The notes below the pieces were generated by a model, which searched no databases, was not told the DNA's origin, and worked only from the letters and a program-made list of their open reading frames with translations. The translations under genes and the position numbers were made by a program. Shown here piece by piece: positions 3 through 40,338 of a stretch of DNA of 64,000 nucleotides (the stretch's first letter is position 1; every line of letters starts with the position of its first letter). The DNA comes from Candidatus Zhuqueibacterota bacterium (lineage in GTDB: Bacteria; Zhuqueibacterota; Zhuqueibacteria; Oceanimicrobiales; Oceanimicrobiaceae). The stretch spans positions 66,791 through 130,790 of the forward strand of contig JAJDAD010000002.1 of NCBI GenBank assembly GCA_029262055.1, read 5' to 3'.

Positions 3-5365
<5,363 letters not shown>

Positions 5366-5370
5366 TCAAC

Positions 5371-5486
5371 ATTTCTCACTTGCGTGGCTACCTTCTAAAC
5401 AATTCCCGAGAAGTCATTCTGAGCACGCAGTCCTAAATTCTGTGTTCCTACCAGGGAGCAAAGGTGTGCGAAGAATCATCGCGCTC
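5371..5486. repeat. Palindromic interspersed repeat, family A, copy 1 (partial or rearranged)
   Basis: Contains 'atttctcacttgcg...ttctaaacaatt...cattctgagcacgcag...ccagggagcaaaggtgtgcgaagaatc'. It matches the copies at 27565, 48512, 60903 and 35189. Confidence 0.7.
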
Positions 5487-5796
5487 CATGCCGGGTTCGA
5501 GGGACTCGCAGTCCGGGCATTTCATGGCAAGAATGTGGTGATGTGCAGTTGCAGTGAACCTAAGCCCGCAGCACAAATGGGTTGCGCCTGTGCTGTTGGT
5601 TCAGTAGATTAACCCGACCACTTCCAAACTGAATGTGAGGTCAGGTGTTGAAAAATCCCGAAAAACCACACGATGCATTGCCCGCTGCAAGGCCTGCCGT
5701 AAGACCGGCGCTCTGGGCGCGATCCGCACTGTTTGTGCGACGGCAGATTACCGTTGGTCAGAACTGGAAAGACGACAAGTGACCGACTCTCAGAAC

Positions 5797-5868
5797 TTTC
5801 TATATGTAGAAAAAAGCTCGTTAACAAAATGTCTATATGTAGAAACTTCTTTCTAAATGTAACATTTT
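5797..5868. repeat. Short repeat family C ('tatatgtagaaa' twice, then 'atatgtagaaacttctttctaaatgtaacatttt')
   Basis: An internal direct repeat 'tatatgtagaaa' occurs twice. The 3' part is near-identical to 53103-53155 (atatgtagaaacttctttctaatgtagat...tga.atga...aattcgg). Confidence 0.65.
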
Positions 5869-5966
5869 GAGATGAGGGGATTGGGTAGGTAGTCAACTAA
5901 TTCGGCGGCTAAATATAAATACATCAAAATGTCTTCATCACTATTTTATGGGTTGTATAGCAATAC

Positions 5967-8900
5967 GTGGCTTCTGAAAAGAACAAAGCAATCAGACTTA
6001 TCGAGTACTTGGGCGAGTTGGCAAAACTTCGATCCAAAATAGTTCGAGATATCGGTGCCTATCAAAAAATCCTGTGGCTTCATGAAATCCCAAAAGAGCA
6101 GAAGTATTGCTACACAAGAGTATGGGGGATTGAAGATGACATAGATGAAGATATCTGGATTGAAATAAAAAAAGATCAGGAGCCCCAATTACCGGCTATT
6201 CCCGACATTTGCGAAAAATGGGTTAATCATGATACTCTCTTTGATGCAGATAGCGTCCCTGAATTGTCTGGAAAAATTATTGAACAGGTTGAAGAACTAG
6301 ACAACGAAAGCGGAGAAACGATAGTTCTCAACAGAACAGTTCAACTTATTGATAATCCGCAGATTCAAGCTGAATGGGAAGAATATCTCCATGAGAAATG
6401 GACACCGTGGAAAGAATTGCATGCTAGGTGGCAAAGTATCCATAAAGTCTATTCTATACTCTTCAATATCTATCAAGATCAACTTAAATTGGGGGAAGAA
6501 TACGAACTTGCCGTCGGAATAGGTCTTCTCGCTTGGAAGACTCCAGGTGGTCACTTGGTGAGACGGCACTTAATTACAGCAAAAGCCTCTATCAGTTTTG
6601 AAGCACATCTTGGAAAATTCACCGTTCGGCCATCTACCGATGGATCTCAACTTGATGTTGAACTTGATATGCTCGACATTGAGGAACAACCGCCAAACAT
6701 CAAGAGAATCGTCGACGACGGTCTTAAGTCTGCGAATGACAATCTATGGGACCGTTCATCGACTAATATCCTACTTAAGGCTGTTACTAACTCACTGGCC
6801 GAGAAAGGCGAAGGTGATTACTTCCCTGAAAAAATTGTACCGACTTCCAACAATTCACCGGAAAAACCCGTAGTCGAATACGCGCCAGCCCTTTTTCTTA
6901 GAAAACGTTCAATACGCGGTCTGGAAACAACTCTCGAAGAGATAAAGAAGCAAGTGGAGAAAGACTCAATTATTCCACATGAGTTTCTTGATCTATGTGA
7001 ATTGGACGAGATTGATCGTGGGTCTGGCGAGAATTTAGGTGATGAAAAAAGTCAGGCTATCCCAGAATCCGATGGAAGAATTTATTTCCCACTTCCATCA
7101 AATGACCACCAACGTAGAATTATCGATACCCTGAATAATAATAAAGGTGTACTTGTCCAAGGGCCACCCGGAACAGGCAAATCACATACAATCACGAACC
7201 TCATCTGCCATCTTCTTGCCACCGGCAAACGCGTTCTCATTACGGCAAAAACACCAAGGGCTTTGCAGGTTCTGGAGAATATGTTGCCAGAAGCCATCAA
7301 GCCACTTTGCATAAATCTCCTTGGGAGTGGAATTCTGGAGCGCACTTCCTTGGAAGCAAGCGTAAGAAACATCCTGAGCAGACAGGATGGATGGAATGTA
7401 CGAGACGTCTCACAAAGAATTGATAATCTTGAACAACAGATCCATCGACTTCAAAAAGATAAAGCGGACACAGATTATAAGCTAAGGGCGCTTCGGGAAC
7501 AGGAAACATTCACGCATAATGTTGCAGAAGGAGCCTATTCTGGTACAGCAGCAAAGATTGCGATGCAATTACAAAAAGAATCAGCCCAACATTCTTGGTT
7601 TTCAGACAAGATTCCTACTGATCAAGTCTTTCCTTTGTCGATTGAGGAGGTCGATATTCTATGCAGTGCGCTAATAACTCTAAGTGCGGAGCAAGAAAAG
7701 GAGCTTGGTCTTTTGGTGCCTGCAAGCGATGACCTACCATCAACGGATACTCTGCAAAAGCTACTCGCGACAGAAAAGAGCAGTTTAAGCAAACTTTCAG
7801 CCAGCAGATCATTATTAACTTCCCCTGAAGGCAAGGCTGTTCAGCAGTCTAACCCCAAAATCGTGGCAGAGTTGGTTGACAGTATCAATTCGCTTAAAGC
7901 AGCGGTCGAGAGCATCAGAAAACGTCCGATGCCTTGGATAAAAAAGGCAGTGTTTGATATGCTCTCAGATAATGACATGCCTTGGAAAGAACTGTTGCAG
8001 TTATCCAAGAGAGAGAGGTCCAAGAAGGATTTAAAGGCGCACGCTCTTGATATTGATGGCGTCTCCATAAGAATTCCGAAAAATATTGATCGAGATAAGC
8101 TCTACCATGATGTCAGATCACTTTATCAGCATTTTGACAAGGGTGGTAAAATAGGACGGGGGCCGTTCAAACCCAAGATTGTGCAAGAGAATTACTATAT
8201 AATCAAAAATATACAGGTAGATGGACGTGAGTGTTCATCTAAAACGACTCTTAGAAAACTAAGGAGTTACTTGTATGTAACAAAAACCCTCAATAACATT
8301 TGGGCACTCTGGTCCGGGAAGGCTGAAAAAGAGCAAGATTCGCTGGTTCTGCAGATCGCGGAGATAGACGAACTGCATGAAGCACTGGGGAACATTGTTG
8401 CCTTGTACAATTTAGTGGAGCTGGCCAAGGAAAATATCAGGAGGATTAACGGCTTAAGTACTCCCGCCTGGCATGATCATGACAGTGAATCGTTACACAA
8501 TTTGCTTGACATATGTCAAGCAGCGACCGCCAGATTCGACCTTTTGGAGGCCCGAGAGAAACTAAAAAAGATTGAAAATCATCTATCGTCAATCATCAAT
8601 CAAGAAAAAGTTCATCCGATAGGTCATCAAATTCATTATGCTTTCCAAAAACGTGACATTGAGTTGTACAGAAAACTGTGCAAGGAAACTGACACCCTTT
8701 GCGAAGCAAAAGAGATTGTCCAAAGAAAGAATGCCGTTTTACAAAAGCTGGCGACCACTGCTCCGACCATTGCTGAAACAATAATAAGTACACCAGACAA
8801 GAATCTTTGGGTGCAGCGGTTGCGGAACATGGAAAAAGCATGGGCTTGGGCCAGAGGAAAAGCATGGCTTGAAGACTATATGGAAGCTGACAATTTCGAC

Positions 8901-10943
8901 AGCCTTGAGCGTAAATCAAATAGACTTGATGAGGACATCCGTAAGTATCTTGCAGAGCTCGCCGGTGATAAGGCTTGGAAGTTTTGTTTCTCGCGGATGA
9001 AAGAATCACACCGCAGACATTTGATTGGCTGGGAGCAGGCAATGAAAAAACTTGGCAAAGGTACCGGTAAACATGCGCCAAGACATCGTCGGACAGCACA
9101 ACAACATTTACATGAATGCCGTGATGCTGTTCCTGCATGGGTTATGCCACTACACAGAGTATATGAGACTGTTCGGCCAGAGCCTAGTCTATTCGACGTA
9201 ATAATTGTCGATGAGGCCTCCCAGTGTGGCCCAGAGGCGTTACCACTGATGTACCTTGCCAAACGTATCCTTGTCGTTGGGGATGACAAACAGATAAGTC
9301 CAGATGCCGTCGGCATTAACCGAGAGCACATGCATCGTCTGATGAGAGAATATCTTTTTGACTTTAAGCATGATGATTTATTCGATGTCGAGAACAGTCT
9401 TTTTGATCATGGACTAAGACGTTTCAATAATAGGATATCTTTGAGAGAACATTTTCGCTGTATGCCTGAGATCATTCGTTTCAGTAACGACCTTTGCTAC
9501 CATACAGGGCCGTTGATACCGCTGCGGCGGTATCCCCCAAACCGGATAGAGCCCCTAAAGGCCATCCATGTATCTTCAGGTTATCGAGAAGGTAAGTTTA
9601 ATAGAGTCATCAATAGGCCAGAGGCCGAAACTTTGGTTGAGAGTGTCCTGGCTTGTTGTAGAGATGAACGTTACAAGAACAAAACCATGGGGGTAATAGT
9701 TCTTCAGGGTGAAGCCCAAGCCTATATTATTGAGAATATGCTGCTTGACAAACTTGGTGCCGAGGAGATGGAGAGACGCCGGCTTGTGTGCGGCCACGCT
9801 TATAGTTTCCAAGGCGACGAAAGAGACGTGATTTTTCTGAGTATGGTCGCAGCCCCAAACGAAAGGATTGGTACCTTGACGAAGGCCGCTGACCAGCGCA
9901 GATTCAATGTTGCGGCAAGTCGAGCTAAAGACCAGATGTGCCTTTTTCATTCTGTTACCCAAAATGACCTTAGCGAGTCTTGCCTCCGTCGAAGATTGCT
10001 GGAATACTTTTATGATCCAGTTAGTCAGATTACCAAAGCATTAGGTGCGAATGCTGAGGAGTTACGGGAAATGGCACATAGAGCTGACAGGAAAATCGAA
10101 AGTCCGCCCTCCCCGTTTGACAGTTGGTTCGAAGTTGATGTCGCACTGCAGATCGCCACTAAAGGATACCGAGTCATTCCGCAGTATCCTTTTGCAGGCA
10201 AGCGAATTGACATGGTCATCGAGGGAAGTCAAACGCAATTAGCTGTTGAGTGTGACGGTGACTTTTGGCATGGTCCCGAGCAATACGAGAAGGACATGGA
10301 GCGCCAGCGAATGCTTGAAAGATGTGGTTGGCAGTTTTATAGGGTTCGTGAGTGTGAATATAATATCGATTCTGAAAATGCTCTTGAACCATTGTGGCAA
10401 CAATTAAACAAGGTGGGTATTGCACCAATATCAGGAAGTCCTAAGGAGGGCACGAAGCCATTTGATGGCGACATTGATAATACGGAGGAATCTACAAGTT
10501 TTTTTGAGAGTACTGCGTCACGTTCTCCACATAGCGGCGATAGCGGTAGTACGGTAAAGGCCGTAAATAACAACTCGAAGGACGATGAGAAGATAAGTGC
10601 AATCAAGAAGCATGAAGCGTCATCTTTAGAATCTGTCCATCCGACCGACATTCAAAATGCCTTGACTATTCAATCTGCAATAATTCGAGACACCATCATC
10701 GCAATATTAGAAGAAAGTCCAAACCATTCATGCATAAAAGAGAAATTGACCACAAATATTCTTCAAAAATGGAATATCAAAACGAGGAGTAAGCCAAGAG
10801 AAAGATTTTCCCGCAGAGTCAATAGAGCTGTTTCTTATTTAGACAGAGAAGGCTATGTTGAAATTTATAAAAGTAAAAATGTCAGAGTGAGACTTAGTGG
10901 AAGGCCATATCCGCGTCAAATGAGATTAAAAGACGTTGATTAA
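5967..10943 (+). CDS. Large SF1 (Upf1/DNA2-like, AAA_11/AAA_12) helicase with a C-terminal DUF559/Vsr-like PD-(D/E)xK endonuclease domain and an uncharacterised approximately 390-aa N-terminal region; GTG start
   Basis: Walker A GPPGTGKSHTITNL...GKRVLITAKT, motif II IIVDEASQ...VVGDDKQISP, and motifs V/VI VCGHAYSFQGDERDVIFLSMV are present. The C-terminus WFEVDVALQIA...VIPQYPFAGKRIDMVIEG...LAVECDGDFWHGPEQYEKDMERQRMLERCGWQFYRV is DUF559/Vsr-like. The gene body is visibly AT-rich compared with its flanks. Confidence 0.8.
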   Translation: MASEKNKAIRLIEYLGELAKLRSKIVRDIGAYQKILWLHEIPKEQKYCYTRVWGIEDDIDEDIWIEIKKDQEPQLPAIPDICEKWVNHDTLFDADSVPELSGKIIEQVEELDNESGETIVLNRTVQLIDNPQIQAEWEEYLHEKWTPWKELHARWQSIHKVYSILFNIYQDQLKLGEEYELAVGIGLLAWKTPGGHLVRRHLITAKASISFEAHLGKFTVRPSTDGSQLDVELDMLDIEEQPPNIKRIVDDGLKSANDNLWDRSSTNILLKAVTNSLAEKGEGDYFPEKIVPTSNNSPEKPVVEYAPALFLRKRSIRGLETTLEEIKKQVEKDSIIPHEFLDLCELDEIDRGSGENLGDEKSQAIPESDGRIYFPLPSNDHQRRIIDTLNNNKGVLVQGPPGTGKSHTITNLICHLLATGKRVLITAKTPRALQVLENMLPEAIKPLCINLLGSGILERTSLEASVRNILSRQDGWNVRDVSQRIDNLEQQIHRLQKDKADTDYKLRALREQETFTHNVAEGAYSGTAAKIAMQLQKESAQHSWFSDKIPTDQVFPLSIEEVDILCSALITLSAEQEKELGLLVPASDDLPSTDTLQKLLATEKSSLSKLSASRSLLTSPEGKAVQQSNPKIVAELVDSINSLKAAVESIRKRPMPWIKKAVFDMLSDNDMPWKELLQLSKRERSKKDLKAHALDIDGVSIRIPKNIDRDKLYHDVRSLYQHFDKGGKIGRGPFKPKIVQENYYIIKNIQVDGRECSSKTTLRKLRSYLYVTKTLNNIWALWSGKAEKEQDSLVLQIAEIDELHEALGNIVALYNLVELAKENIRRINGLSTPAWHDHDSESLHNLLDICQAATARFDLLEAREKLKKIENHLSSIINQEKVHPIGHQIHYAFQKRDIELYRKLCKETDTLCEAKEIVQRKNAVLQKLATTAPTIAETIISTPDKNLWVQRLRNMEKAWAWARGKAWLEDYMEADNFDSLERKSNRLDEDIRKYLAELAGDKAWKFCFSRMKESHRRHLIGWEQAMKKLGKGTGKHAPRHRRTAQQHLHECRDAVPAWVMPLHRVYETVRPEPSLFDVIIVDEASQCGPEALPLMYLAKRILVVGDDKQISPDAVGINREHMHRLMREYLFDFKHDDLFDVENSLFDHGLRRFNNRISLREHFRCMPEIIRFSNDLCYHTGPLIPLRRYPPNRIEPLKAIHVSSGYREGKFNRVINRPEAETLVESVLACCRDERYKNKTMGVIVLQGEAQAYIIENMLLDKLGAEEMERRRLVCGHAYSFQGDERDVIFLSMVAAPNERIGTLTKAADQRRFNVAASRAKDQMCLFHSVTQNDLSESCLRRRLLEYFYDPVSQITKALGANAEELREMAHRADRKIESPPSPFDSWFEVDVALQIATKGYRVIPQYPFAGKRIDMVIEGSQTQLAVECDGDFWHGPEQYEKDMERQRMLERCGWQFYRVRECEYNIDSENALEPLWQQLNKVGIAPISGSPKEGTKPFDGDIDNTEESTSFFESTASRSPHSGDSGSTVKAVNNNSKDDEKISAIKKHEASSLESVHPTDIQNALTIQSAIIRDTIIAILEESPNHSCIKEKLTTNILQKWNIKTRSKPRERFSRRVNRAVSYLDREGYVEIYKSKNVRVRLSGRPYPRQMRLKDVD

Positions 10944-10960
10944 AACACCCAATCGGGTAA

Positions 10961-10981
10961 GCGGGGGTTTTTCTCCCCCGC
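10961..10981 (+). terminator. Stem-loop immediately after the helicase gene (gcggggg-tttttct-cccccgc)
   Basis: Perfect 7-bp GC stem 18 nt after the stop codon. No clear U-tract follows, so it is a terminator-like hairpin only. Confidence 0.4.
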
Positions 10982-11170
10982 CCCCACAACACCCAGCGTG
11001 CGGGCCCGCACTGGGCGGTCACCGCAGATGAACCAACATCAAATGCGAAAATGTTCTTTCACATTTACAAGGCTGGGGGTGTCGCCGCGCCGCTCACGAC
11101 TGAGCCCGGTCGGGCATAAGTGCCGCAAGACAGTCGCTACCTTATCAAGTGCGGAGGTAAGAGACACAGA

Positions 11171-12511: not shown

Positions 12512-13285
12512 ATGACTGTTGTGCTAAAGGCGTATTTGTTAGGTTTGACAGTCCTGCTTTGCCTGGGCACGCCTGTCACCGCCCAACACTTTCTTACGGT
12601 TGGAACCGGGGCAGGTTTGCGGATTTTTGCGTCGGACGAGGTAGACCGGTTTGCCGACACGTATAATCGTGTCAACCGGGACAACCTCGCATCATTGTTA
12701 GGTGGGTTCAACGGCGCTGAGGGCTTACGTTTCGAAGTAGGCTATCGGTATTGGAAGAAAAATACCGCCGCGACAATTATTGGCTGGACCACCTCAGTGC
12801 GCAACGACAACGCGACCTTCAACAACGACGAAGTGCGTAGCCTGGAGTTGAAGAGTAACCGGTTTTACCTCGAAGGTGAATTTGGCCGTCCCTTTGGCGA
12901 CGTTTTCGTCAACGGTGTACTGGCACTTTTTTTCAATCGCGAGCAGGAAATCGAGGCTGAGTATTTCGATCAGCGCCGTGCCCCGGTCGACAAAAGATTG
13001 AACGGCATCTATCGCGCCCGAACGGATTTTTCCACCGACATCGGCATTGCTGCCGGCTTCTATCGCAAACCGATTTTTCTGGTGCTCAAGATCACCCAAC
13101 CCATTCTTGCGACGAATGAGTCCGACCTGTTGTCCGACAACCGAACTGAAAAAGTCGTGGACAACAGCAACATCTTCCCGGATGATTTCTTCAGTTTTAC
13201 CGACCGCGAGGATTATGCCGGCGTACCGAATAAGATGGACGGGCTCAAGATTTCTCTGGTGGTGTCATTTGCGATGGAGCTGTAA
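12512..13285 (+). CDS. Hypothetical secreted or outer-membrane protein
   Basis: Signal peptide MTVVLKAYLLGLTVLLCLGTPVTAQ. No recognised domain. Its 3' end is partly duplicated downstream at about 14210-14335. Confidence 0.5.
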   Translation: MTVVLKAYLLGLTVLLCLGTPVTAQHFLTVGTGAGLRIFASDEVDRFADTYNRVNRDNLASLLGGFNGAEGLRFEVGYRYWKKNTAATIIGWTTSVRNDNATFNNDEVRSLELKSNRFYLEGEFGRPFGDVFVNGVLALFFNREQEIEAEYFDQRRAPVDKRLNGIYRARTDFSTDIGIAAGFYRKPIFLVLKITQPILATNESDLLSDNRTEKVVDNSNIFPDDFFSFTDREDYAGVPNKMDGLKISLVVSFAMEL

Positions 13286-13396
13286 TCGATTGAAATAGGC
13301 AGCACTGTTCTTTCCACCGCCCGTCTTGTTTCTGGTCATAGATTCCTTAGCAGAGGTGTACAATCGAGAATAAGCGGGTAATCTGAGAGAAAAAAT

Positions 13397-13640
13397 AGAA
13401 CCACGAAGAACACGAAGGGCACGAAGTGGAATTTGATGAGTTGTCAAATCGAGTCATTGGCTGTGCGATGAAATCTATCTGGGGAATAAACCAGAGTTCC
13501 AGTAGGGCTACTGTTAAACCTCAAAGTCGGCTCTCAAAGATGGTGGTGTCCGACGCTTTGTTGTTTAAGTCTTCGTGTTCTTCGTGCCCTTCGTGGTAGA
13601 AAAAAGAGCTGCTGACATTTGCGTGCAGCCGAGTGTCTTG
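13397..13640 (+). pseudogene. Internally deleted copy of the GxxExxY cassette, with both 25-bp inverted repeats retained
   Basis: IR-L cacgaagaacacgaagggcacgaag is followed by gtggaatttgatgagttgtcaaatcgagtcattggctgtgcg (MEFDELSNRVIGCA...). The sequence then jumps to the C-terminal segment (...ccagagttccagtagggct...gatggtggtgtccgacgctttg) and IR-R cttcgtgttcttcgtgcccttcgtgg. Confidence 0.6.
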
Positions 13641-13749
13641 GTTCAGCGACAATTGAAACAAGTAGTACTGTTCTTGCCACCGCTATCGTGTGGCAGAGGT
13701 AAAGTGTCAAATCGAGAAGAAGTGGGTAATTTGACAGAGAAAATCAAAC

Positions 13750-14177
13750 CCCGAAGAACACGAAGGGCACGAAGTGGAATTTGATGAGTTGTCAAGTCGA
13801 GTCATTGGCTGTGCAATTGAAGTCCATCGGGCTTTAGGTCCAGGACTCTTAGAGTCGGCATATGAACAGTGTTTTGCCAGAGAGTTGTCGTTGGCGGACA
13901 TTTCATTTGAAGTTCAAGTCCCTCTCCCTGTAGAATACAAAGGCATTCGTTTAGATTGCGGCTACCGAGTCGACCTGTTTGTGGAGAAAAAGCTCATAAT
14001 TGAATTAAAAGTGGTTGATAAGTTTTTGCCAATTCATGAAGCTCAGATATTGACCTACATGAAATTAGCCAGAGTTCCAGTAGGGCTGTTGATGAATTTC
14101 AATGTGGAGCTTCTCAAAGATGGTGGCATCCGACGCTTTGTTCTTTAAGTCTTCGTGTTCTTCGTGCCCTTCGTGGT
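13750..14177. mobile_element. GxxExxY mini-cassette bounded by perfect 25-bp inverted repeats (cacgaagaacacgaagggcacgaag / cttcgtgcccttcgtgttcttcgtg)
   Basis: The inverted repeats are exact reverse complements. A second, decayed unit lies directly upstream. Fragments of both flanking genes (the 12512-13285 3' end and the marC 5' end) are duplicated around the units. Confidence 0.55.
13774..14148 (+). CDS. GxxExxY-family protein (PDDEXK_3, putative PD-(D/E)xK nuclease); GTG start inside the left inverted repeat
   Basis: Sequence MEFDELSSRVIGCAIEVHRALGPGLLESAYEQCFARELS...YRVDLFVEKKLIIELK carries the GxxExxY signature (GLLESAY) and the D...E.K core. It is flanked by perfect 25-bp inverted repeats at about 13750-13774 and 14150-14177. 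Confidence 0.8.
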   Translation: MEFDELSSRVIGCAIEVHRALGPGLLESAYEQCFARELSLADISFEVQVPLPVEYKGIRLDCGYRVDLFVEKKLIIELKVVDKFLPIHEAQILTYMKLARVPVGLLMNFNVELLKDGGIRRFVL

Positions 14178-14351
14178 AGAAAAAAGAGCTGCTGACATTT
14201 GCGTGCAGCCGGGCCGTGCCCCCTGTCGACAAAAGGTTGAGAGGAGTCTGTCGCGCCAGAACGGATTTTTCTACAGACATTATGACGCGTGCCCAACAAG
14301 TTGGACGGGTTCAAGATTTCTCTGGTTGTGTCATTTGCTATGGAGTTGTAA

Positions 14352-14948
14352 TTGATTGAAATAAGCAGCACTGTTCTTTCTGCCGCGACCGTCTTGTTTC
14401 TGGTTATGGATCCGCTGGGCAACATTCCTTTGTTCTTGACGCTGCTAAAGGATATCGATGAAAAACGGCGCCGGCCGATCATCTTGCGTGAGGTCCTGTT
14501 TGCGCTGGTGATCCTGTTGATTTTTCTCTTCTTCGGCCAACATCTTCTGGACTTCCTGAAATTGCAGCAGGAGTCAGTCAGCATTGCAGGCGGGATCGTG
14601 TTGTTTGTGATCGCCATTCGCATGATCTTTCCGACCGGACGCGCAATCATGGGAGACCAACCGGAGGGCGAGCCCTTCATCGTCCCTTTAGCCATCCCGC
14701 TGGTGGCCGGGCCCTCGACATTGGCTACCCTCATTCTGATGGTGCGCAGCGACCCCAACCGCATGTCGGAATGGCTCGCTGCTTTGCTTATGGCCTGGGG
14801 TGTAACCGCGATGATCTTGTTGTCTGCGCCTTTTCTTTATCGCATTCTTCGGAAGCGAGGCCTGGCAGCAATCGAACGATTGATGGGAATGCTGCTGATT
14901 ATGATTTCAGTGCAGATGCTGCTGAACGGCGTAGAGAGCCTGAGATGA
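14352..14948 (+). CDS. MarC-family (UPF0056) integral membrane protein
   Basis: MIEISSTVLSAATVLFLVMDPLGNIPLFLTL... with multiple TM helices. The first roughly 50 bp are duplicated as a fragment at 13295-13340. Confidence 0.75.
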   Translation: MIEISSTVLSAATVLFLVMDPLGNIPLFLTLLKDIDEKRRRPIILREVLFALVILLIFLFFGQHLLDFLKLQQESVSIAGGIVLFVIAIRMIFPTGRAIMGDQPEGEPFIVPLAIPLVAGPSTLATLILMVRSDPNRMSEWLAALLMAWGVTAMILLSAPFLYRILRKRGLAAIERLMGMLLIMISVQMLLNGVESLR

Positions 14949-18978: not shown

Positions 18979-21900
18979 TTAGCTGAACAGCTCTTCGATA
19001 TCCCGCAAGGTTAGTTGTTTAAACAGGCCCGCACTGCTGGTGATAATGCTCGACACCAGCTCCTTCTTCTTCTCCTGCAAATGCAGGATTTTCTCTTCCA
19101 CAGTGCCCTTGCTGATCATCTTGTAGACAAAAACGTGCTTGTCCTGCCCGATGCGATGACTGCGATCGGTAGCCTGGGCCTCGACCGCCGGGTTCCACCA
19201 GGGATCATAGTGGATGACGTAATCGGCGGACGTCAGGTTTAAGCCCGTACCGCCGGCCTTCAGGCTGACGAGAAAGATCCTGCACGCCTCATCTTTTTGG
19301 AATCGCTCTACACATTCTTTTCGGTTGCGGGTACTGCCGTCAAGATATTCATACGGCGTGCCTTGCGCGTCCAGTTGTTTGCGCACAATGGTTAGCATCT
19401 TGACGAATTGTGAGAACACCAGGACTTTGTGCCCCTCGGCCAGCAATTCTTCGAGATACTGGTTCAACAAGTCAAACTTTTGCACCGGGCCCTTGAAGGA
19501 GTCCTCCACAAGGTGCGGGTGACAGGCCAGCAAGCGCAACTTGACGAGGCCTTCGAGGACGTTCATGCGAGATTTGTTTAAACCGGAATCAGCGATTTGA
19601 TTCAGAACCTGAGCCCGGTAGTAGTCTCGCCACTTGTTGTAAACCTTTTCATGCTGTGGCGCCATCTCCGCGTAAACGATGCTTTCAATTTTGGGCGGCA
19701 GCTCGGGTGCCACTTTTTCTTTCGTGCGGCGCAATAGAAACGGAAAAACCATTTTTTTGAGCAGTTGCGCGGCGGCTTCATCCTGTTCCGCTTCGATCGG
19801 TTTGGCGAATTCGTTCTTAAAATAACTCAAGCTGCCGAGCAGTCCCGGATTTAGAAACGAAAACAAGGACCAAAGCTCGATGGTGTTGTTTTCGATGGGT
19901 GTGCCGGTCAGTGCCAGCCGGTGCCGGGCCTGCAGGACTTTCACGGCCTTGGCGGTTTGCGACAGCGGGTTCTTTATGTTCTGAGATTCATCCAGAATCA
20001 CGTAATCAAACATAACATCCTTGAGGAAGAGGATGTCGCGACGCAAGGTGCCGTAACTGGTCAGCACGATGTCGTAGTCACTATAATTGATGCCGGTGCG
20101 GAGACGATCTGCGCCGGTTTGGTTTAAGACGCGCAAACCGGGTGCGAACCGTTCTATTTCGGCCTGCCAGTTGAAAACCACCGAGGTCGGTGTGATGATG
20201 AGGCTTGGCAAATCGATCTCGTTTTCAACTTGCCACTGCAGAATTGAGAGAGCCTGGACCGTCTTGCCCAGACCCATGTCGTCAGCCAGGCAACCCCCGA
20301 ACCGGTAGTTACGCAAAAAATGCAGCCAATGGTAGCCGGCTTTCTGGTAGTTCCGCAGGTCGGCGGAAAGATTTGCGGGCAGGTCATACTCCGCGATGCC
20401 GTCGAAATCTTTTAACTGTTCCAGCCGCTCTTCAAAGACTGTATCCATGTTTTTTTGGTGAGCAGCGGCAAACAGTTCATCAATCAGAGTTACATGAAAG
20501 CTGGAAAGACGCACCCCGTCCTGACGTTCTTCGCCAAGATTGATCACATGCCGAAAGCGGTCCAGCCATTCCCTCGGCATTTTGCTTACGCTGCCGTCTA
20601 CCAGTCGGACATACTTGCTATTTTTCTTCAGCGCCTTTTTGATTTCCGACAACGAGAGCATGACACCACCGACATCGATTTCCATTTGCAGGTCAAACCA
20701 GTCGATGTTAGATTTGGTGCTTACGCTTATCGAGGCGGAGGCTCTGTTTACTCTGAACCTGGATAAGCTCTCTTCACCGTAAACGGCAAATCCGTTCGAT
20801 ACGAGTTGCGGGATTTCGTCGATGAGCCATTCCAGGGTTTGATTGCTCCTGGTAGTAATGACTCCGGCCTTGGCGGTCTTGACACTGGTGCGCTGCAGGA
20901 GGGCGACCGCCTCGGCTTCACGCTTCTGGTCACGTTGTATTTTGATGAATGTGCTACCGTCTTCGTTACTGCTCCATACGGCCGGTCTTGTATCTCGCGC
21001 CAGAACCTCTACCGGGCCATATCCGAACCGGAGGTCTACTTTGATGCAATCGCCAAACTCTTCGAGGTAGAGGCGCTGTTCGGTGATCTCGCCGATGGTC
21101 TCGGTACCGATACCTTCGGGTACGCGAAAATGTTGCAGCAACTCAGATTGCGCCCCCAGAGAGTTTAGAAATGATGGCATGTCCTTGCGGGGAACCGTCA
21201 CCTTGTAGTTTTTTCTGAGGAAGGGAATCAGGCTTTCAGCATTGTGATCTCCGGCAATGCTGATGATGCTGCTTTCACGCAAAATCCAAACAGGATTGAC
21301 GGTCAGTAAGGTGAACGTGTGGTCGAGGATGTGCTCCGAGTCGTCGAGCAGCAGAAATGGCTGCAGGCGCAAAACGTCTCCTTCACCGAGCATCCGAAAT
21401 TCGATTCTTCCGCTGTTTTCCCCGACCTGGAGCCCGGTGCGTTTTTCCCCGTCCGACAAGTACAGGCGACTGTCTTGCAACATATCGAAAATGACGCCCG
21501 CATCCGCACCATCGACAAATCTGTATTGCACGGGGCGTGGGTCGTAGTAGGCGTTCTGTGAGCCGTTACGGTAAGACTTGTCCAGGTAACTTAGAACCAG
21601 ATTGTCGTGACGGCTGCGGCGCAGGTTGGGATTATTGAAGTCGGTGGTGGCGAGGCCGCGCGGGACTCCCATGCCTCCGTCTTTTTTAGCCAACCGCTTC
21701 TGCGGTTCTATACTCCAACCTTTTTGGCTGGTTCTAAGGACGAAGACCAGGTGCCAGAGACGGTCGTAGGCAGTGACATTTTCTTTTTCAGGTCTGATGC
21801 GCGACAGATAGTTTTGCCAACCTGATTTGATGTCCGCGTCTGCCACCAGGTCTATGCGGCGCCAGTCGATCGCCTCCAGGACTGTTGCTACGATGTGTTT

Positions 21901-22188
21901 GCAGATGCCGTTAAACGGGCAAGTGCACTCGGTATACTTGTAATCATTTTCAAGCCAAATCTCGACGTGGTAGGGGCTGGTTCCGCTTACTTCCGCCTCA
22001 ACAAACTCGGGGGTGATCACTTTGATTTGTACACGGCCTTCTGCGTGGTAGCTCTGGCCGCGCGCAAAAATATGGGGCGCAACAATGGCCCGAATGTCTT
22101 CAACTGCCAGGTTCATCTTGGCGCAAGTCTCCGGTGGTATTGGCAACAGGGCAAACCGGAATATACGACCGTCAATCCAATTGAGCAA
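18979..22188 (-). CDS. SWIM zinc-finger SNF2-family helicase (RapA/HepA-like)
   Basis: SWIM motif CTCPFNGICKHIVATVL. SNF2_N motifs LRNYQKAGYHWL...LADDMGLGKTVQAL and DESQNIKNP. Helicase_C motif RIFLVSLKAGGTGLNLTSADYVIHYDPWWNPAVEAQATDRSHRIGQ. The true start may be the internal MNLAVED at 22116. Confidence 0.85.
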   Translation of the reverse strand: MLNWIDGRIFRFALLPIPPETCAKMNLAVEDIRAIVAPHIFARGQSYHAEGRVQIKVITPEFVEAEVSGTSPYHVEIWLENDYKYTECTCPFNGICKHIVATVLEAIDWRRIDLVADADIKSGWQNYLSRIRPEKENVTAYDRLWHLVFVLRTSQKGWSIEPQKRLAKKDGGMGVPRGLATTDFNNPNLRRSRHDNLVLSYLDKSYRNGSQNAYYDPRPVQYRFVDGADAGVIFDMLQDSRLYLSDGEKRTGLQVGENSGRIEFRMLGEGDVLRLQPFLLLDDSEHILDHTFTLLTVNPVWILRESSIISIAGDHNAESLIPFLRKNYKVTVPRKDMPSFLNSLGAQSELLQHFRVPEGIGTETIGEITEQRLYLEEFGDCIKVDLRFGYGPVEVLARDTRPAVWSSNEDGSTFIKIQRDQKREAEAVALLQRTSVKTAKAGVITTRSNQTLEWLIDEIPQLVSNGFAVYGEESLSRFRVNRASASISVSTKSNIDWFDLQMEIDVGGVMLSLSEIKKALKKNSKYVRLVDGSVSKMPREWLDRFRHVINLGEERQDGVRLSSFHVTLIDELFAAAHQKNMDTVFEERLEQLKDFDGIAEYDLPANLSADLRNYQKAGYHWLHFLRNYRFGGCLADDMGLGKTVQALSILQWQVENEIDLPSLIITPTSVVFNWQAEIERFAPGLRVLNQTGADRLRTGINYSDYDIVLTSYGTLRRDILFLKDVMFDYVILDESQNIKNPLSQTAKAVKVLQARHRLALTGTPIENNTIELWSLFSFLNPGLLGSLSYFKNEFAKPIEAEQDEAAAQLLKKMVFPFLLRRTKEKVAPELPPKIESIVYAEMAPQHEKVYNKWRDYYRAQVLNQIADSGLNKSRMNVLEGLVKLRLLACHPHLVEDSFKGPVQKFDLLNQYLEELLAEGHKVLVFSQFVKMLTIVRKQLDAQGTPYEYLDGSTRNRKECVERFQKDEACRIFLVSLKAGGTGLNLTSADYVIHYDPWWNPAVEAQATDRSHRIGQDKHVFVYKMISKGTVEEKILHLQEKKKELVSSIITSSAGLFKQLTLRDIEELFS

Positions 22189-24007: not shown

Positions 24008-27000
24008 TCAAAACAGCGAGATTTGTGTCTTGTCCGGGTCTTTCTTTTTCTTGATGGCTTTCGCCTGTTCTGCTTTTGTGAGGCTGCGTTCGATGTTGTT
24101 TAGGAATTTCGATCTTGGGGGAGTGAGCGTTTTCCCGAACCGCAGCCGCTTGTTTGCGTGTGTCAGGACAAGCTGCTCCCGGGCGCGGGTCATGCCGACG
24201 TAAAGTAACCTCCGCTCCTCATCTTCGTCAGAGGTAGCTTTCTCACTTTCAAACGGCAGGATACCCTGTTCGCAGCCCACAATAAAGACAACGCCAAACT
24301 CCATTCCTTTGGCCGCGTGCAGAGTCATCAGGGAAACCCGGTCCGCCCTGGGATCGTAATCATCCGTTTCTGAGGTAATGGCGCAGGCGCGCAGAAATCC
24401 TGCCAGGTCTGCACCGAACGGCTTCGCGGCTAAAATAAACCGGCTGAGCGTGCGCGCGGGTTTATCAGCGGCGAAATAGTCGTCCGGATAAAATCCGGCG
24501 ATTGTCCTCACAATGATTTCCGATACCGACAGCGGGACGGTGTTCGTTCTCAAGGCCTTAAGCCGGGTCGAAAACGTCGCGATCGCCGCACGTTGACGCG
24601 TATTCAGGCCTGGGATTTTGGCGACGGTTTGCATGGCCTCCCAGATTCCGGTTGCTTCATGGTGCGCGAAATTCAGCAGTTTTTGCAAAGCCATAGGGCC
24701 GATCCCCAGCCGCGTCTCGGCCAGACGTTGTGCAAGAAGTGTATCGTTGACTTCGCCCACGAGTAACCAAAGCTGCTGTAGCAGTCCTTTGAAGGGTTGG
24801 TTCTGGTAACTCGATTGCCGCCCGATTACCTGATAAGGTATGCCCGAGCGGTCAAATGCTTCCTCCAGCAGCGTGCTTTGAGAATTCAAACGGTAGAGGA
24901 CCGCAAAGTCACGAAATGTGGCCGACGGCAGTGTTTGTCCGCTAACCCGCTCCGAGTCGATGGAAAAATAACTGGTTCCTCCAACCATTTTTTCGATTTG
25001 GTGAACCACATATTCGGCTTCGGCTTTGCCGGTCGGCGCGCTATAGATACTGATTTTTTTTTCGGTGACTATTTGCGACCAGTTGGAATATTCATCGTCT
25101 CGCGCCGTCCGGTTCAGAACCTGGGCGGAGGCCGCCACAATGTTGTGGGCTGAGCGGTAGTTGCGTCCCAACCTGATCATACGTGTGCCCGGAAAGTCCC
25201 TGGCAAAATCCAGAAAATATTGCGGCGTCGCACCCCTGAATCCGTAAATCGCCTGGTCAGGATCGCCGATGGCGCAGAGGTTGGTGTGGTCTCCGCAGAG
25301 AAGTTTCAGGAATCGATATTGTGCGAAATTGACATCCTGGTATTCGTCTACCGATATCCACTTGAAACGTTGCCGGCAAGCCGTCCGAACGCCGGCATGC
25401 TCTTGCAGCAAGCACACGGTCCTGCTAATGAGGTCTTCGAAATCAAGTGCCTGACGCGCACGTAACTCATCTTCATAGCCTTGAAAGTACCCGGAAAAAT
25501 GAGCGGGGGTAGCGAACGTGTTTGATTTCCTCGCCGTCTCCGGACTCAAAAGTGAGCGCTTTGCGGCAGAGATGGCTGCGCTGAGCTCCTGAAGCTCCAC
25601 TTTCGGGATATCTTTGACCAGCGTCCGTAGCAAGCCTAACTTGTCAGCCTCATCGCAAATGGAAAAGATAGGCGGAACATCGATTAGATGGCCGAACTCG
25701 GCAAGAATCCTGATTCCGAGGCTATGAAATGTACAAATGGTTAGCGCTGCGATTTGCTGAGGCTGCAGGGACCGCGTCAGCCGGGCTTGCATTTCTTCTG
25801 CGGCTTTGTTGGTAAATGTGACGGCCAGTATTTCATCCGGGCGCGCGTGGCCCGCGGCGATCAGGCCGACGATTCTATTAGTCAGGGTCCGGGTTTTGCC
25901 GGTGCCGGGACCTGCCACGATCAGGAGTGGACCTGCGGTATGCTTGACCGCCTGCTCCTGTTCGTGGTTATGCATCTCTCCGCCATCGCCTTGCGCGGTT
26001 AACCGCGGTGAATCGGGCATTACTGTTTTAGCTTTCGGAACAGGACGGACGGGAGCCGGTGTGTCGGTTTCGTCCGACACGGCGGCGCTGGCCTGTTTCT
26101 CCATATCTTCCTGTGCCGCCCGCTTTACATTGTCCATGAAGAAACTCAATTGGGTCGTAAACTCTTCTCTCTCAGCCTTTTCAAAGAGCTGGATTTTACC
26201 GAACTCGCCGTCGTATCCCGCGGCTATTTTGATTTCGCCGGCTCGGATGCGTTTGATGCCTTCGGCTACCATGTCACCGGCAAACCTGCTGATGTCGGCG
26301 ATAGCGGCTTCCTGCAAAATATGCAGCTCGGATCCAAGTTTGGACAAAAGGTAGTCAAAACTCTGCCTGACCCGCTTTGAATTAACGCCTACCCCATGAA
26401 TCTCGGATAAGACCTCGGGCAGCGGCACCAGGCTTTGGTAGGGATGCGGAAGTGACGGTATTTGGCCGGGTTCTCTGTCGGCCAGCGCCTCGACGCGGTG
26501 CATAACCCCGACTGTGACTCGCTTGCCACAGTCAGAACAGATGCCGTCGTGCGCAATTGTGGTGCGCGGGTCCCAGCATACCCGGCACTTCCGGTGGCCA
26601 TCGTAATGGTACTTGCCCTCCTCCGGGAAAAATTCGATGGTCCCCAGAAACTTGTCGCGGTCGCCGCTCTTCAAAGCAGAAAAAATCGCGTCGTACGACA
26701 AGTCCGTGTCAAACAGATTCGCCTCCCTCGCTAGTTTCTGTGGTGAATGTGCGTCGGAATTTGACACCAGCGTGTAGCGGTCGAGGATGGAGAGACGTTC
26801 ATTCATTGGCGGGTCCGACGACAGGCCGGTTTCAAGGGCAAAAATCTGGTCGGTTAAGTCGCCGAAGCATTCTTCCACCGAATCAAATCCGGACATGGAA
26901 CCGAGCATTGCGAACCAGGGCGTCCAGATGTGGGCAGGAATCAGATAGCCCTGCGGGTCAGTTTCCAAAACGATTTCGAGCAAATCGCGCGAATCCAGGC

Positions 27001-27421
27001 CGAGAATTGGCCGGCCATCCGACCGGATGTTGCCGATTTTGTCCAGCGTGGACTGGAATTTCTCTAAAGCATCAAACGACGGCATGAAGACGACATTGTG
27101 AATTTTGCGAACCTTGTCGTGGCGTTTGTAAATGTTGCTGATTTCGCCGGCCAGCATGAAACGCACCATGCCGGCGCACGCTTTCGGGACTTCCGGCTGG
27201 GTGACTTTGCTGTACTCCGGCTTTAAACGGAAAAGCCCATCCTCTGCCGGTTCCAGCTTTTCTTGCATCTCCTGCAGCCAGCCCGGATGCGCGATGTCGC
27301 CGGTCCCGACCACATTGACGCCCTTCAGTTGCGCCCATTTGTGCAGATGTTCCAGATTGAGGCTTTTGCTGGTGGCGCGCGAGTAGTAGGAATGGAGGTG
27401 AATGTCTGCTACGATTTTCAT
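24008..27421 (-). CDS. Fusion protein: N-terminal EndoQ-like PHP-domain nuclease with a Zn ribbon, plus a C-terminal UvrD/PcrA-family SF1 helicase
   Basis: N-terminus MKIVADIHLHSYYSRATS...GVNVVGTGDIAHPGW is PHP/EndoQ-like, followed by CRVCWDP...CSDCGK. A Glu-rich linker leads to UvrD motifs LLIVAGPGTGKTRTLTNRI...LAVTFTNKAAEEM and later helicase motifs (TLHAAKGMEFGVVFIVG, VGMTRARE). Confidence 0.8.
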   Translation of the reverse strand: MKIVADIHLHSYYSRATSKSLNLEHLHKWAQLKGVNVVGTGDIAHPGWLQEMQEKLEPAEDGLFRLKPEYSKVTQPEVPKACAGMVRFMLAGEISNIYKRHDKVRKIHNVVFMPSFDALEKFQSTLDKIGNIRSDGRPILGLDSRDLLEIVLETDPQGYLIPAHIWTPWFAMLGSMSGFDSVEECFGDLTDQIFALETGLSSDPPMNERLSILDRYTLVSNSDAHSPQKLAREANLFDTDLSYDAIFSALKSGDRDKFLGTIEFFPEEGKYHYDGHRKCRVCWDPRTTIAHDGICSDCGKRVTVGVMHRVEALADREPGQIPSLPHPYQSLVPLPEVLSEIHGVGVNSKRVRQSFDYLLSKLGSELHILQEAAIADISRFAGDMVAEGIKRIRAGEIKIAAGYDGEFGKIQLFEKAEREEFTTQLSFFMDNVKRAAQEDMEKQASAAVSDETDTPAPVRPVPKAKTVMPDSPRLTAQGDGGEMHNHEQEQAVKHTAGPLLIVAGPGTGKTRTLTNRIVGLIAAGHARPDEILAVTFTNKAAEEMQARLTRSLQPQQIAALTICTFHSLGIRILAEFGHLIDVPPIFSICDEADKLGLLRTLVKDIPKVELQELSAAISAAKRSLLSPETARKSNTFATPAHFSGYFQGYEDELRARQALDFEDLISRTVCLLQEHAGVRTACRQRFKWISVDEYQDVNFAQYRFLKLLCGDHTNLCAIGDPDQAIYGFRGATPQYFLDFARDFPGTRMIRLGRNYRSAHNIVAASAQVLNRTARDDEYSNWSQIVTEKKISIYSAPTGKAEAEYVVHQIEKMVGGTSYFSIDSERVSGQTLPSATFRDFAVLYRLNSQSTLLEEAFDRSGIPYQVIGRQSSYQNQPFKGLLQQLWLLVGEVNDTLLAQRLAETRLGIGPMALQKLLNFAHHEATGIWEAMQTVAKIPGLNTRQRAAIATFSTRLKALRTNTVPLSVSEIIVRTIAGFYPDDYFAADKPARTLSRFILAAKPFGADLAGFLRACAITSETDDYDPRADRVSLMTLHAAKGMEFGVVFIVGCEQGILPFESEKATSDEDEERRLLYVGMTRAREQLVLTHANKRLRFGKTLTPPRSKFLNNIERSLTKAEQAKAIKKKKDPDKTQISLF

Positions 27422-27564
27422 TTAATTGAATGTCCTGATCAAAACGGAAGGCGGTCATTTATATCGAAAACTGAGAATTCGAGACTCCATTTTCAAGATA
27501 AAAGAAATAGTGACTAACATTTGGCATTTGCATATTTACGTTCTAAACAATTGTTTAGATGTAA

Positions 27565-27722
27565 TTCTGAGCACGCAGCCCAAATTCTGTGTTTCTACCA
27601 GGGAGCAAAGGCGTGTGAAGAATCTCCCCAGACATTCGAAGATTCTTCGCACTCAATGTCTTTCGCGACCTCAAAATCCATCACTTCGCGCTCAGAATGA
27701 CCTTGAATCGAAGTGAGAAATG
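27565..27722. repeat. Palindromic interspersed repeat, family A, copy 2 (full length)
   Basis: aattctgagcacgcag...gtgtgaagaatctccccagacattcgaagattcttcgcac...cgcgctcagaatgaccttgaatcgaagtgagaaatg shows terminal inverted repeats and an internal palindrome. Confidence 0.75.
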
Positions 27723-27773
27723 TAAGTAATGCCCTTCAAGGGAGAAAGCATGCAGGGACGTTTCGGGTTTATT

Positions 27774-39500: not shown

Positions 39501-39613
39501 GGGGTTCGTGGGGCATTGCTACAGACTTCCTGCGGTGCTCGGCGCGCAACAGCCTCTATCCCGGCGACAGGGACGGCAATGTTGGGTTTCGAGTTGTTCG
39601 GCCCCAGTCCTAA
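36578..39613 (+). CDS. DGR target protein: membrane-anchored NACHT (STAND) NTPase with a C-terminal FGE-sulfatase/C-type-lectin-fold domain that carries the variable region
   Basis: Two N-terminal hydrophobic segments (MGKLCIGLFIFAIVSVPLSTLLA; MMPWLIALGALVLAVYQYY). NACHT Walker A LVLIGEPGSGKTTLMKF and Walker B LVLLDGLDEI. The C-terminus YPVTNKRYRRFIAY...VTWFAARAYCFW...LEWEWAAAG...LRGGSWGIATDFLRCSARNSLYPGDRDGNVGFRVV is FGE-sulfatase-like with an RGGSW-type DGR VR motif. Confidence 0.85.
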   Translation: MGKLCIGLFIFAIVSVPLSTLLAREGGQQADSSKQHRASTSVSADTSSKSPKPLPATLPEKSKQNSSDETDMNQMMPWLIALGALVLAVYQYYRRRTDTRDMLRDEMRVKDEFETSQAKERELTAEESYRAALHKELGSIKILGSPDIDSLPVSLLDSFVSLRISETWRNESRFDPRKMERQHEDRDLSPEEILQRAFRQDRMLVLIGEPGSGKTTLMKFYAMTCLEGGGGSALGFKQAVLPLYLPLRDLKFKEKEDGIESLPNNLAARAEKHVLDIEAKEFYDWLHNRETLVLLDGLDEISDLKKRKQVCKWIDNTCTGLTKARFVVTSRWTGYRKAEGIELETDHLRADVRDFSRDQQEEFLRKWFRAVYLREYKESGKPPVDWQERQRKKADLRVDKILGFLKRASNHSLRELGATPMLLQIMAILWKERDILPESRASLYAAALNYLLVFRDRRRDLDPVLPVDKARRVLLPTALWMQAEVGKDEVPKNDMYDQMQPKLNSMEEQADAAVFCQNLVDRAGLLAEYGEADYIFRHKSFREYLAGVQLTKEENKIEWLQKLIDHFGDDWWEEPLRFFINEGDDKLFDAFMDLFFTSEMSKELDQKQQDLLQTLVREAPQRELTALAQWLNKNETNTQQRRYILECLKTIGTAAALEEVEKYLDKMFTRHEKRLNRPSVQETHQEASRLDPNFKYATEILAESARRTPAVAAKGRAQVESSATLADDLFRKLPASFVNDHEQSAEYILIPPGEFKFSVSKNIEPVPNIYFAKYPVTNKRYRRFIAYLSNQLDEQSGRLPTDLFSQKLSEFAAGIKDFTDYLGTDRNGWANKLRSGYDDNKRFNHDDQPVVAVTWFAARAYCFWLSCLQETELDHKLEDANKLANNCRLPTELEWEWAAAGRERDGSLRDYPWPKEEGSPTDKLANYGGTVGATTPVGRYLEGATPEGLLDMAGNVLEWSESWRDEGRSRRALRGGSWGIATDFLRCSARNSLYPGDRDGNVGFRVVRPQS
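39487..39606 (+). repeat. DGR variable region (VR), 120 bp, the 3' end of the NACHT-FGE gene
   Basis: Identical to the TR at 40076-40195 except for about 16 positions. Every difference corresponds to an adenine in the TR. Confidence 0.9.
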
Positions 39614-39687
39614 GTTGTTGTAACTCTGTTTTCTGTCTGTCTGTTGTTCTGATCAAATGGTTTTAAAAAAAATGAGGAGGAAGCAAC

Positions 39688-40047
39688 ATGCCTAAAACCG
39701 AGATGCTCGTTATCAAAAAAGGGTATGATTTCTCGAAATGGCTATTAAATCATACCGGCAAATTTCCAAAGAGCTATCGTTTCAGTGTAGCAGCCAAGCT
39801 CGAAAACGGTATTCTTGATTTCATAGAGGCGACGACTGTAGCCAATATGAGAAGGGATAAGATATCATTCTTAACAAAGGCAGACGAGGCGCTTGCCCGG
39901 CTACGATTGTTGTTCCGGCTTAGTTACGAAATGCGGTTTATCAACCTCAAGTCATACGAATACGGAAGCCGGCAAATGGCGGAACTAGGACGGTTACTCG
40001 GCGGCTGGTTGAAGAATCCCGGTGCCGGTTTCGCAAGAACTAATTGA
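39688..40047 (+). CDS. avd: DGR accessory variability determinant (Avd; four-helix-bundle protein)
   Basis: At 119 aa the sequence MPKTEMLVIKKGYDFSKWLLNHTGKFPKSYRFSVAAKLENGILDFIEA... matches the Avd / 23S-rRNA-IVS protein family. It sits between the target gene and the TR, as in canonical DGRs. The RBS is gaggagg. Confidence 0.8.
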   Translation: MPKTEMLVIKKGYDFSKWLLNHTGKFPKSYRFSVAAKLENGILDFIEATTVANMRRDKISFLTKADEALARLRLLFRLSYEMRFINLKSYEYGSRQMAELGRLLGGWLKNPGAGFARTN

Positions 40048-40075
40048 TGAGAATAATAGGACAGGAGTCACGGTG

Positions 40076-40195: not shown

Positions 40196-40338
40196 AATCA
40201 TGCCCAACCCATGCATCCTTTATGGTGCCCTACCTGATGCCGGATGGTTTCACGGAACCCCGGACTGCTGTACGGGCATGACATGCGGCTCTTGCATCCT
40301 GGGTTTGCTCGCTGCTGAGCCAGCCCGAACATAAACCA

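Follow-up and report, generated by a model that had tools for sequence, protein, structure and literature searches.

A low-GC, probably acquired gene for a split Upf1-like helicase fused to a Vsr-type nuclease, with a likely role in defence against invading DNA

The subject of this report is a gene for a large helicase-nuclease found in a 64,000-nt stretch of DNA from Candidatus Zhuqueibacterota bacterium (positions 66,791 to 130,790 of contig JAJDAD010000002.1, GenBank assembly GCA_029262055.1). This whole stretch is called the window below, and coordinates are positions within it unless another contig is named. The complete gene is a single unbroken open reading frame (ORF) on the forward strand, 5967..10943, which opens on GTG and encodes 1658 amino acids; the identical protein is present in two sister metagenome assemblies. 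We regard the start at 5967 as credible because this GTG is the first start codon past an in-frame stop and because an ATG occupies the equivalent position in a relative of 73% protein identity (locus L084). An initial annotation, made by a model from the sequence, had described the gene body as AT-rich relative to its neighbours, and this is borne out: its GC content is 0.437, against 0.587 for the upstream glycoside hydrolase family 2 (GH2) beta-galactosidase gene, 0.523 for the downstream S58 peptidase gene and 0.525 for the window as a whole. At third codon positions (GC3) the gene stands at 0.409, the lowest value in the window's set of 37 large ORFs, for which 0.60-0.70 is typical. The anomaly is limited to the gene itself and about 170 nt 5' of its start.

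Pfam recognises in the protein AAA_11 at aa 378-572 and again in a second stretch, AAA_12 at aa 1142-1326, and REase_MTES_1575 at aa 1388-1480, and leaves aa 1-376 and 1481-1658 without a match. The domain order first proposed for the protein, namely an N-terminal domain, a split Upf1-like helicase, a Vsr-type nuclease and a tail, is supported. A profile of 22 full-length relatives matches Sen1, Upf1, IGHMBP2 and DNA2 in the PDB (E 3e-19 to 2.5e-12), and because these are the solved structures that it finds, we assign the motor to the Upf1-like helicases of superfamily 1B (SF1B); in addition to this similarity, the protein carries motifs I (GxxGxGKS/T), II (DEAxQ), III, V and VI. The first part of helicase domain 1A (7098..7682), with the Walker A sequence GPPGTGKS at aa 399-406, is followed by a conserved insertion of about 470 aa that has no Pfam family and fills the gap between the two AAA_11 stretches (7683..9074), and then by the remainder of domain 1A together with domain 2A, which holds motifs V and VI (9075..9956). 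Motif II reads DEASQ (aa 1082-1086) and motif III GDDKQ (aa 1105-1109). The insertion had initially been put at 650 aa. That there is an insertion is correct, and Walker A K405 lies 677 residues from motif II D1082; relative to the AAA_11 model, however, the net insertion comes to only about 470 aa (aa ~573-1036). It is conserved across the family, with many invariant Trp residues, and its C-terminal part (aa 797-1060) aligns to the MkoC, PDC-S37 and ProA models.

The nuclease, a PD-(D/E)xK restriction endonuclease (REase) domain of the Vsr type (REase_MTES_1575 / DUF559), occupies aa 1385-1482 (10119..10412). Its MTES_1575 match has an E-value of 2e-28 and scores 98.6 bits, above the Pfam gathering cut-off of 38.2, and the acidic and His core residues are kept; the DUF559 match is marginal (22 bits, cut-off 20.6). 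In an alignment of 114 sequences that took in plasmid relatives at 27-35% identity, helicase residues G399, G402, K405, D1082, E1083, Q1086, G1105, D1106, Q1109, Q1282, G1283, R1286, N1314 and R1319 are invariant, as are nuclease residues E1389, D1415, E1428, H1435 and R1446, and both enzymes are therefore under purifying selection.

The region that precedes the motor is specific to this family. An AlphaFold2 (AF2) model of aa 1-376, made from an 18-sequence alignment (mean predicted local distance difference test, pLDDT, 79; predicted template modelling score 0.71), shows a mixed alpha/beta domain at aa 1-341 (5967..6989), followed by a disordered linker at aa 347-369. Across 18 family members the domain has no Pfam match even at E <= 10, no relative was found among PDB sequences, and the Foldseek search of the PDB returned no match (best E 0.29, template modelling (TM) score at most 0.11). 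A profile of the domain, searched against 1.84 billion representatives, finds 1947 clusters (at 50% identity) when matches down to E <= 1e-3 are counted, of which 583 remain at E <= 1e-30, and among the best 150 clusters listed the domain is always N-terminal in proteins of the same architecture or in fragments thereof. The protein had at first been likened to DUF4011-type proteins, and on this point the N-terminus does not follow: Pfam gives no match to DUF4011 (PF13195), hhalign of a 109-sequence profile of the domain against a 118-sequence DUF4011 profile yields a probability of 1.3% (E 0.039), and reciprocal hidden Markov model (HMM) searches with hmmsearch give E-values above 0.05, so that none of the three is significant and these searches do not detect a DUF4011 identity. 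hhalign nevertheless places the two collinearly and sets 'GLLtW-x6-RRHLI' opposite 'GFLEW-x6-R-APLf' of the DUF4011 core, the shared motif being 'G-[LF]-L-x-W ... R ... L', and the two domains may be very remotely related. We infer that the N-terminal domain is a sensor or regulatory module.

The last 190 aa, for which no domain had been proposed, are not featureless. A low-complexity, poorly conserved linker (aa ~1483-1561; 10413..10649), with a mean column identity of 0.18 over aa 1501-1550 and pLDDT under 50 where the tail model begins, leads into a C-terminal winged-helix domain at aa 1562-1643 (10650..10895). AF2 models the latter at pLDDT 87, above 95 in the core, with a1-b1-a2-a3-b2-b3 topology, and its top Foldseek matches in the PDB are mostly winged helices (Zalpha, MukE, MarR, cullin WHB, forkhead and Fur), at probability ~1, TM scores of up to 0.74 on the target and E-values of 8e-3 or more, as expected for a domain of 80 residues. 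A winged-helix tail is common to 88 of the 120 closest clusters; the others are tail-less or have unrelated tails, a GerE/sigma-r4 helix-turn-helix (HTH), or the GreA/GreB domain PF01272, with P0083 and P0095 among the members whose tail is a GerE HTH or GreA/GreB domain. In P0112 and P0116 the tail is a complete primary sigma factor, matching B. subtilis SigA over its full length (phmmer E 1e-135). Immediately upstream of the gene for P0116 (locus L101, 6797-12862) are a QatABCD system and a Type ISP fragment. On two Streptomyces plasmids a tail-less homologue is overlapped at its end by an ORF of 271-280 aa (L086 12545-13360; L091 11374-12216), for which Pfam gives no match and which may be a separately encoded substitute for the tail.

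Comparison with the two closest relatives, L083 (79% protein identity) and L084 (73%), indicates what travels with the gene. Their surroundings differ from those of the window, and DNA similarity is confined to the gene and a leader of 30-65 nt (5901-10949 in the comparison with L083, 5939-10944 in that with L084); the leader, a putative promoter region, is placed at 5901..5966 (+) accordingly. In L083 an IS110 transposase, in fragments, lies upstream, and the homologue is flanked by two intergenic modules of about 600 bp (1510-2122 and 7174-7644 of that locus), 77-90% identical to each other and each consisting of a terminator-like hairpin and a promoter-like part, so that the locus looks like a cassette array. 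The adjoining genes show no conservation: even the largest cluster of them occurs at only 4 of about 80 loci. No conserved partner was thus found, and the unit is the single gene. Out of 65 loci, 53 have the helicase-nuclease gene lower in GC than its flanks, and for 24 of these the difference exceeds 5 points. Horizontal acquisition, as the initial annotation had proposed, is thus supported by the GC3 outlier, the lack of synteny, the different flanks of the 79% and 73% homologues and the low GC seen across loci. A look-up for an empty site, by exact search with the lacZ protein, returned the same contig only and no insertion-free relative. In this genome it marks a clean insertion of one gene, with a metabolic gene on either side.

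The initial annotation had placed repeats just upstream of the gene and a GC hairpin just downstream. These features exist, and yet they are not boundaries of the acquired unit: homology to the nearest relatives spans 5901-10949 only. The low-GC stretch has at its left end two exact 14-nt direct repeats, TCTATATGTAGAAA (5799-5812 and 5832-5845, forward strand), 33 nt apart; their count was reached in none of 100 shuffles, and with up to two mismatches allowed there are 4 matches where 0.13 would be expected. Conservation of these repeats does not extend to the regions upstream of the 79% and 73% homologues. The second copy falls within a 66-nt element (5830-5895) that contains ATATGTAGAAACTTCTTTCTAA; a 74%-identical copy of this element, at 53100-53165, precedes an unrelated PQQ_2/BamB-like gene (53245-54993), and we suggest that the direct repeats and this element may be a shared promoter or operator, a local regulatory element. 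Further upstream, at 5363..5508, where GC is still host-like, lies one copy of the palindromic 'family A' repeat. This is a host intergenic family of about 150-220 nt found after gene ends, with terminal inverted repeats GTCATTCTGAGCGCGAAG / CTTCGCGCTCAGAATGAC and related copies at 27511-27730, 48518-48655 and 60892-61003, and it may be an element similar to miniature inverted-repeat transposable elements or repetitive extragenic palindromes. As cassette ends or attachment sites the upstream repeats were rejected: they are not conserved in the nearest relatives, part of the element is found again ahead of an unrelated gene, and no tRNA or integrase accompanies them.

Downstream of the stop codon, the GC hairpin at 10960-10980 lacks a forward-strand T-run and aligns as domain VI of a group II intron, and hence was rejected as the gene's terminator. 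It is contained in a match on the reverse strand to group II intron domains V/VI (Rfam RF00029, 10952..11020) that scores 33.6 bits (E 4e-4) in the window, where the gathering score is 40. Sister contig L002 is 99.9% identical to the window over 5640-11017 and diverges after 11017; at its equivalent site (5313-5744) the match reaches 47.5 bits, with a typical maturase ORF following on from it, and the two copies of domain V differ by a compensatory pair. A further contig from the Logan collection (L001) ends at 11109. These observations point to a polymorphic intron insertion or else to a repeated intron at which the assembly broke, and the feature at 10952-11020 would be either an intron relic in this genome or a population variant with the full intron, in both cases unrelated to the helicase gene.

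The family is widespread. A scan of one genome per species recovered at least 583 relatives in many phyla, including Desulfobacterota, Nitrospirota, Planctomycetota, Acidobacteriota, Chloroflexota, Bacillota, Cloacimonadota, Ignavibacteria, Patescibacteria and archaea. Among plasmids 551 records match, a number that includes distant relatives such as Hhe, and protein coverage reaches 80% in only 6 of them; from phages the family is nearly absent, with 5 weak partial matches among 50,697 records. The neighbourhoods of relatives frequently include defence or mobile-element genes, in line with the initial suggestion of a part in defence or selfish-element biology. On Acinetobacter plasmids a relative immediately follows BREX-1 brxL, on plasmids of Variovorax and Streptomyces relatives adjoin Wadjet, and one relative directly follows QatABCD. 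Others adjoin a type I restriction-modification (R-M) system, toxin-antitoxin pairs or clusters of them, a WYL regulator and a Bro-N protein, the insertion sequences (IS) IS110 and IS21 with MobC genes, or a resolvase with IS66 and IS110; further relatives lie near a type I R-M S subunit and an integrase, or near IS701, a recombinase and a DUF4276/AAA pair, and one copy has been disrupted by IS701. These contexts support horizontal spread and an association with defence or mobile elements.

Taken together, we propose with moderate confidence that the gene is a self-contained, acquired one-gene helicase-nuclease that most likely defends its host against phages or other invading DNA. The initial reading of a giant helicase-nuclease, probably for defence, is in its general form supported, both by the likeness to the anti-phage protein Hhe set out below and by the contexts of the relatives. 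Upf1-like SF1B helicases translocate in the 5'->3' direction, and nucleases of the Vsr/REase type are DNA endonucleases. In the mechanism that we envisage, the winged-helix tail and the N-terminal domain would bind or sense a nucleic-acid structure or a cue derived from the invader, and this would release the Upf1/Sen1-type SF1B motor. The motor would then be driven by ATP 5'->3' along single-stranded nucleic acid while the fused Vsr-type endonuclease nicked or cut DNA along the track, with the outcome that invader DNA, or host DNA in an abortive-infection variant, would be destroyed. The role in defence, the substrate (DNA, not RNA), the polarity of translocation and the part of the N-terminal domain as sensor are points that we infer. 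Helicase-coupled nucleases that are switched on by particular DNA structures have been described in Hachiman (PMC12278908) and Druantia III (bioRxiv 10.64898/2026.05.13.724313); both use superfamily 2 helicases, and the analogy is therefore functional only.

Several observations weigh against a defence role. Scores fall below the curated cut-offs of every named anti-phage model. The relative at L099 sits among housekeeping genes only, and the flanks in the window are likewise ordinary (the GH2 glycosidase and the S58 peptidase), with no tRNA, integrase, transposase or recognised defence gene next to the helicase-nuclease. Of the genes immediately next to 67 loci, 133 in all, at most 3 match any one PADLOC family, and the association with defence islands is hence qualitative, without a background control. 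Finally, the closest solved helicases are RNA helicases, and an RNA substrate is therefore possible.

This last point is the starting place for an alternative that we consider unlikely, in which the protein would be a surveillance enzyme directed at RNA or transcription, its motor working, as has been proposed for Mokosh, on transcripts, on R-loops or on RNA polymerase during transcription, and its variable C-terminal module targeting it to promoters or RNA polymerase. Sen1 and Upf1, the best solved matches, are indeed RNA helicases, and the models of the Mokosh proteins MkoA and MkoC match the protein (E 2e-33 to 2e-39); the nuclease fused to the motor is, however, of the Vsr/REase type, a type of DNA endonuclease. 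The top structural match of the tail is a Zalpha domain, but at E 8e-3 amid dozens of winged helices, which are generic DNA binders. The replacement of the tail in relatives by a SigA-type sigma factor, a GerE/sigma-r4 HTH or PF01272 also points to transcription, but sigma fusions are a small minority, being found in 3 of 120 clusters. It is also conceivable, if improbable, that the family polices transcription as a means of finding its target: the exchangeable tail would deliver the helicase-nuclease to promoters or RNA polymerase, and the Sen1-like motor would first engage R-loops or transcription complexes on invading DNA, the cut by the Vsr-type nuclease coming afterwards. If this were true, a sigma-factor-tethered immune nuclease would constitute a new way to recognise foreign DNA, and the N-terminal domain would represent a new fold for a sensor.

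Very unlikely, in our estimate, is that this is a selfish or addiction gene, or a weapon used between elements, kept by harming cells or competing elements that do not carry it and spread with insertion sequences, plasmids and cassette arrays. The company of IS110, IS701, IS66, IS21, resolvase and Mob genes, the plasmid-borne copies, the repeated modules of about 600 bp that bracket the L083 gene and the surroundings rich in toxin-antitoxin genes all fit such a gene, yet no conserved antitoxin-like partner is found; the idea also overlaps heavily with a defence function, from which sequence data alone do not separate it. We likewise see little chance that it is a genome-maintenance enzyme for repair or recombination on behalf of the host or of carrier plasmids, for while a helicase joined to a PD-(D/E)xK nuclease follows the logic of DNA2 and AddAB, with DNA2 among the PDB matches and only housekeeping genes flanking some loci (the window, L099), the distribution is patchy and without synteny, the composition is foreign, two paralogues per genome are possible (P0088 and P0102 probably share one contig of 3,175,754 bp), relatives adjoin BREX, Wadjet, Qat and R-M systems, and one copy is disrupted by IS701.

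We note some further features of the window. At 12981-14386 there is a cluster of segmental duplications of 80-97% identity (for example, 13532-13631 = 14112-14211 and 13221-13320 = 14287-14386) surrounding a small low-GC PDDEXK_3 gene (13774-14148); PDDEXK_3 also occurs near the helicase in L011 and L018. Two more large helicase genes lie on the reverse strand at 18979-22188 and 24008-27421, one encoding SNF2 with SNF2_assoc and the other a UvrD-like protein with a 480-aa N-terminal extension. Finally, 36578-41433 holds a complete diversity-generating retroelement, made up of a target gene (36578-39613) with its variable repeat (39487-39609), bAvd (39688-40047), a template repeat (40077-40199) and a reverse transcriptase gene (40396-41433) of low GC3 (0.448). 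The two repeats differ by 16 mismatches, and the template copy has A in all 16.

With regard to known systems, the family is unnamed in Pfam, NCBIfam r20 and PADLOC v2, all of which miss the N-terminal domain; on profile comparisons, it is an unnamed sister family of Hhe, ProA and PDC-S37. The NCBIfam Hhe model (NF042953) matches with E 3e-47 and 160.7 bits against a cut-off of 2000 bits, with only aa 1056-1489 aligning. The NCBIfam ProA model (NF058533) matches with E 3e-65 and 220.5 bits against a cut-off of 1500, aa 371-1624 aligning to positions 643-1830 of 1903. In PADLOC the best match is PDC-S37 (PDLC05009; E 4e-59, 198.5 bits, model positions 721-1451 of 1550), followed by MkoC (2e-39) and Hhe (4e-33). 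Six relatives behave in the same way, scoring 112-166 bits with Hhe, 171-261 bits with ProA and E 1e-48 to 1e-66 with PDC-S37, for which the matches span the helicase start to the nuclease, from about model position 290. For the protein and the six relatives alike, matches start at the helicase and never reach the N-terminal parts of the Hhe, ProA and PDC-S37 models. Large single-protein helicase-nucleases of the Hhe and ProA type are among the least understood anti-phage systems. Our literature search found no primary paper on ProA and none on PDC-S37, and the papers that mention Hhe give no mechanism. If the gene is a defence system, its family would be a widespread addition to defence catalogues. 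It would also offer a natural domain-swap series, with a fixed N-terminal sensor, motor and nuclease and a variable tail targeting DNA or RNA polymerase, that would be useful for working out how foreign and self nucleic acids are discriminated.

Among named systems Hhe (HheA; DUF4011 helicase plus Vsr endonuclease; PDLC02194) offers a close parallel in layout. It is likewise a single-protein anti-phage system, and it has the same domain order, with an N-terminal domain, an SF1 helicase split by a very large insertion, MTES_1575 and a winged-helix-type C-terminus. BLASTP against an annotated Hhe from a Klebsiella plasmid gives 27% identity (E 1e-29) over aa 1028-1487, which take in helicase domain 2 and the nuclease, plus a stretch around Walker A. 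The differences are also clear. The Hhe insertion, at the equivalent position in the helicase, is still larger and does not align with ours; the Hhe N-terminus is DUF4011, whereas that of our protein is not detectably so; and the C-terminal DUF3320 of Hhe was not detected in our protein, which has a single winged helix instead. The suggested likeness to DUF4011-type giant helicase-nucleases thus holds for the resemblance to Hhe in sequence and split layout, and fails at the level of membership, since scores lie below the Hhe and ProA thresholds. ProA provides the longest collinear match of any named model, through helicase, insertion, nuclease and part of the tail, with its N-terminal region, the first ~640 model positions, matched by neither our protein nor the six relatives. 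PDC-S37, a single-gene candidate in PADLOC-DB v2 that to our knowledge has not yet been tested, is matched at only 160-224 bits for a model of 1550 positions; PADLOC carries no curated cut-off, and judged by coverage the match is not full-length. Because the first ~290 positions of that model never align, the N-terminal domain differs from that of PDC-S37 as well.

The resemblance to Mokosh is confined to the Upf1/Mov10-like SF1 core and part of the insertion (MkoC, aa 797-1357). The effector of Mokosh is a nuclease of the phospholipase D (PLD) type; Pfam finds no PLD domain of the kind present in Mokosh type II (MkoC) in our protein, whose nuclease is of the Vsr type. An older parallel is found in the MTES_1575-type proteins described by Anantharaman et al. 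(2013; PMC3710099), which combine HEPN, a transglutaminase, an SF1 helicase, a Vsr REase and two winged helix-turn-helix domains. They share with our protein the order of SF1 helicase, Vsr-type REase and winged helix or helices, and differ in their N-terminal domains, neither HEPN nor transglutaminase being found in our protein by Pfam. Our protein is fairly described as belonging to a sister family within a wider group, in which a variable N-terminal domain precedes a split SF1B helicase that is followed by an MTES_1575 nuclease and then by a winged helix.

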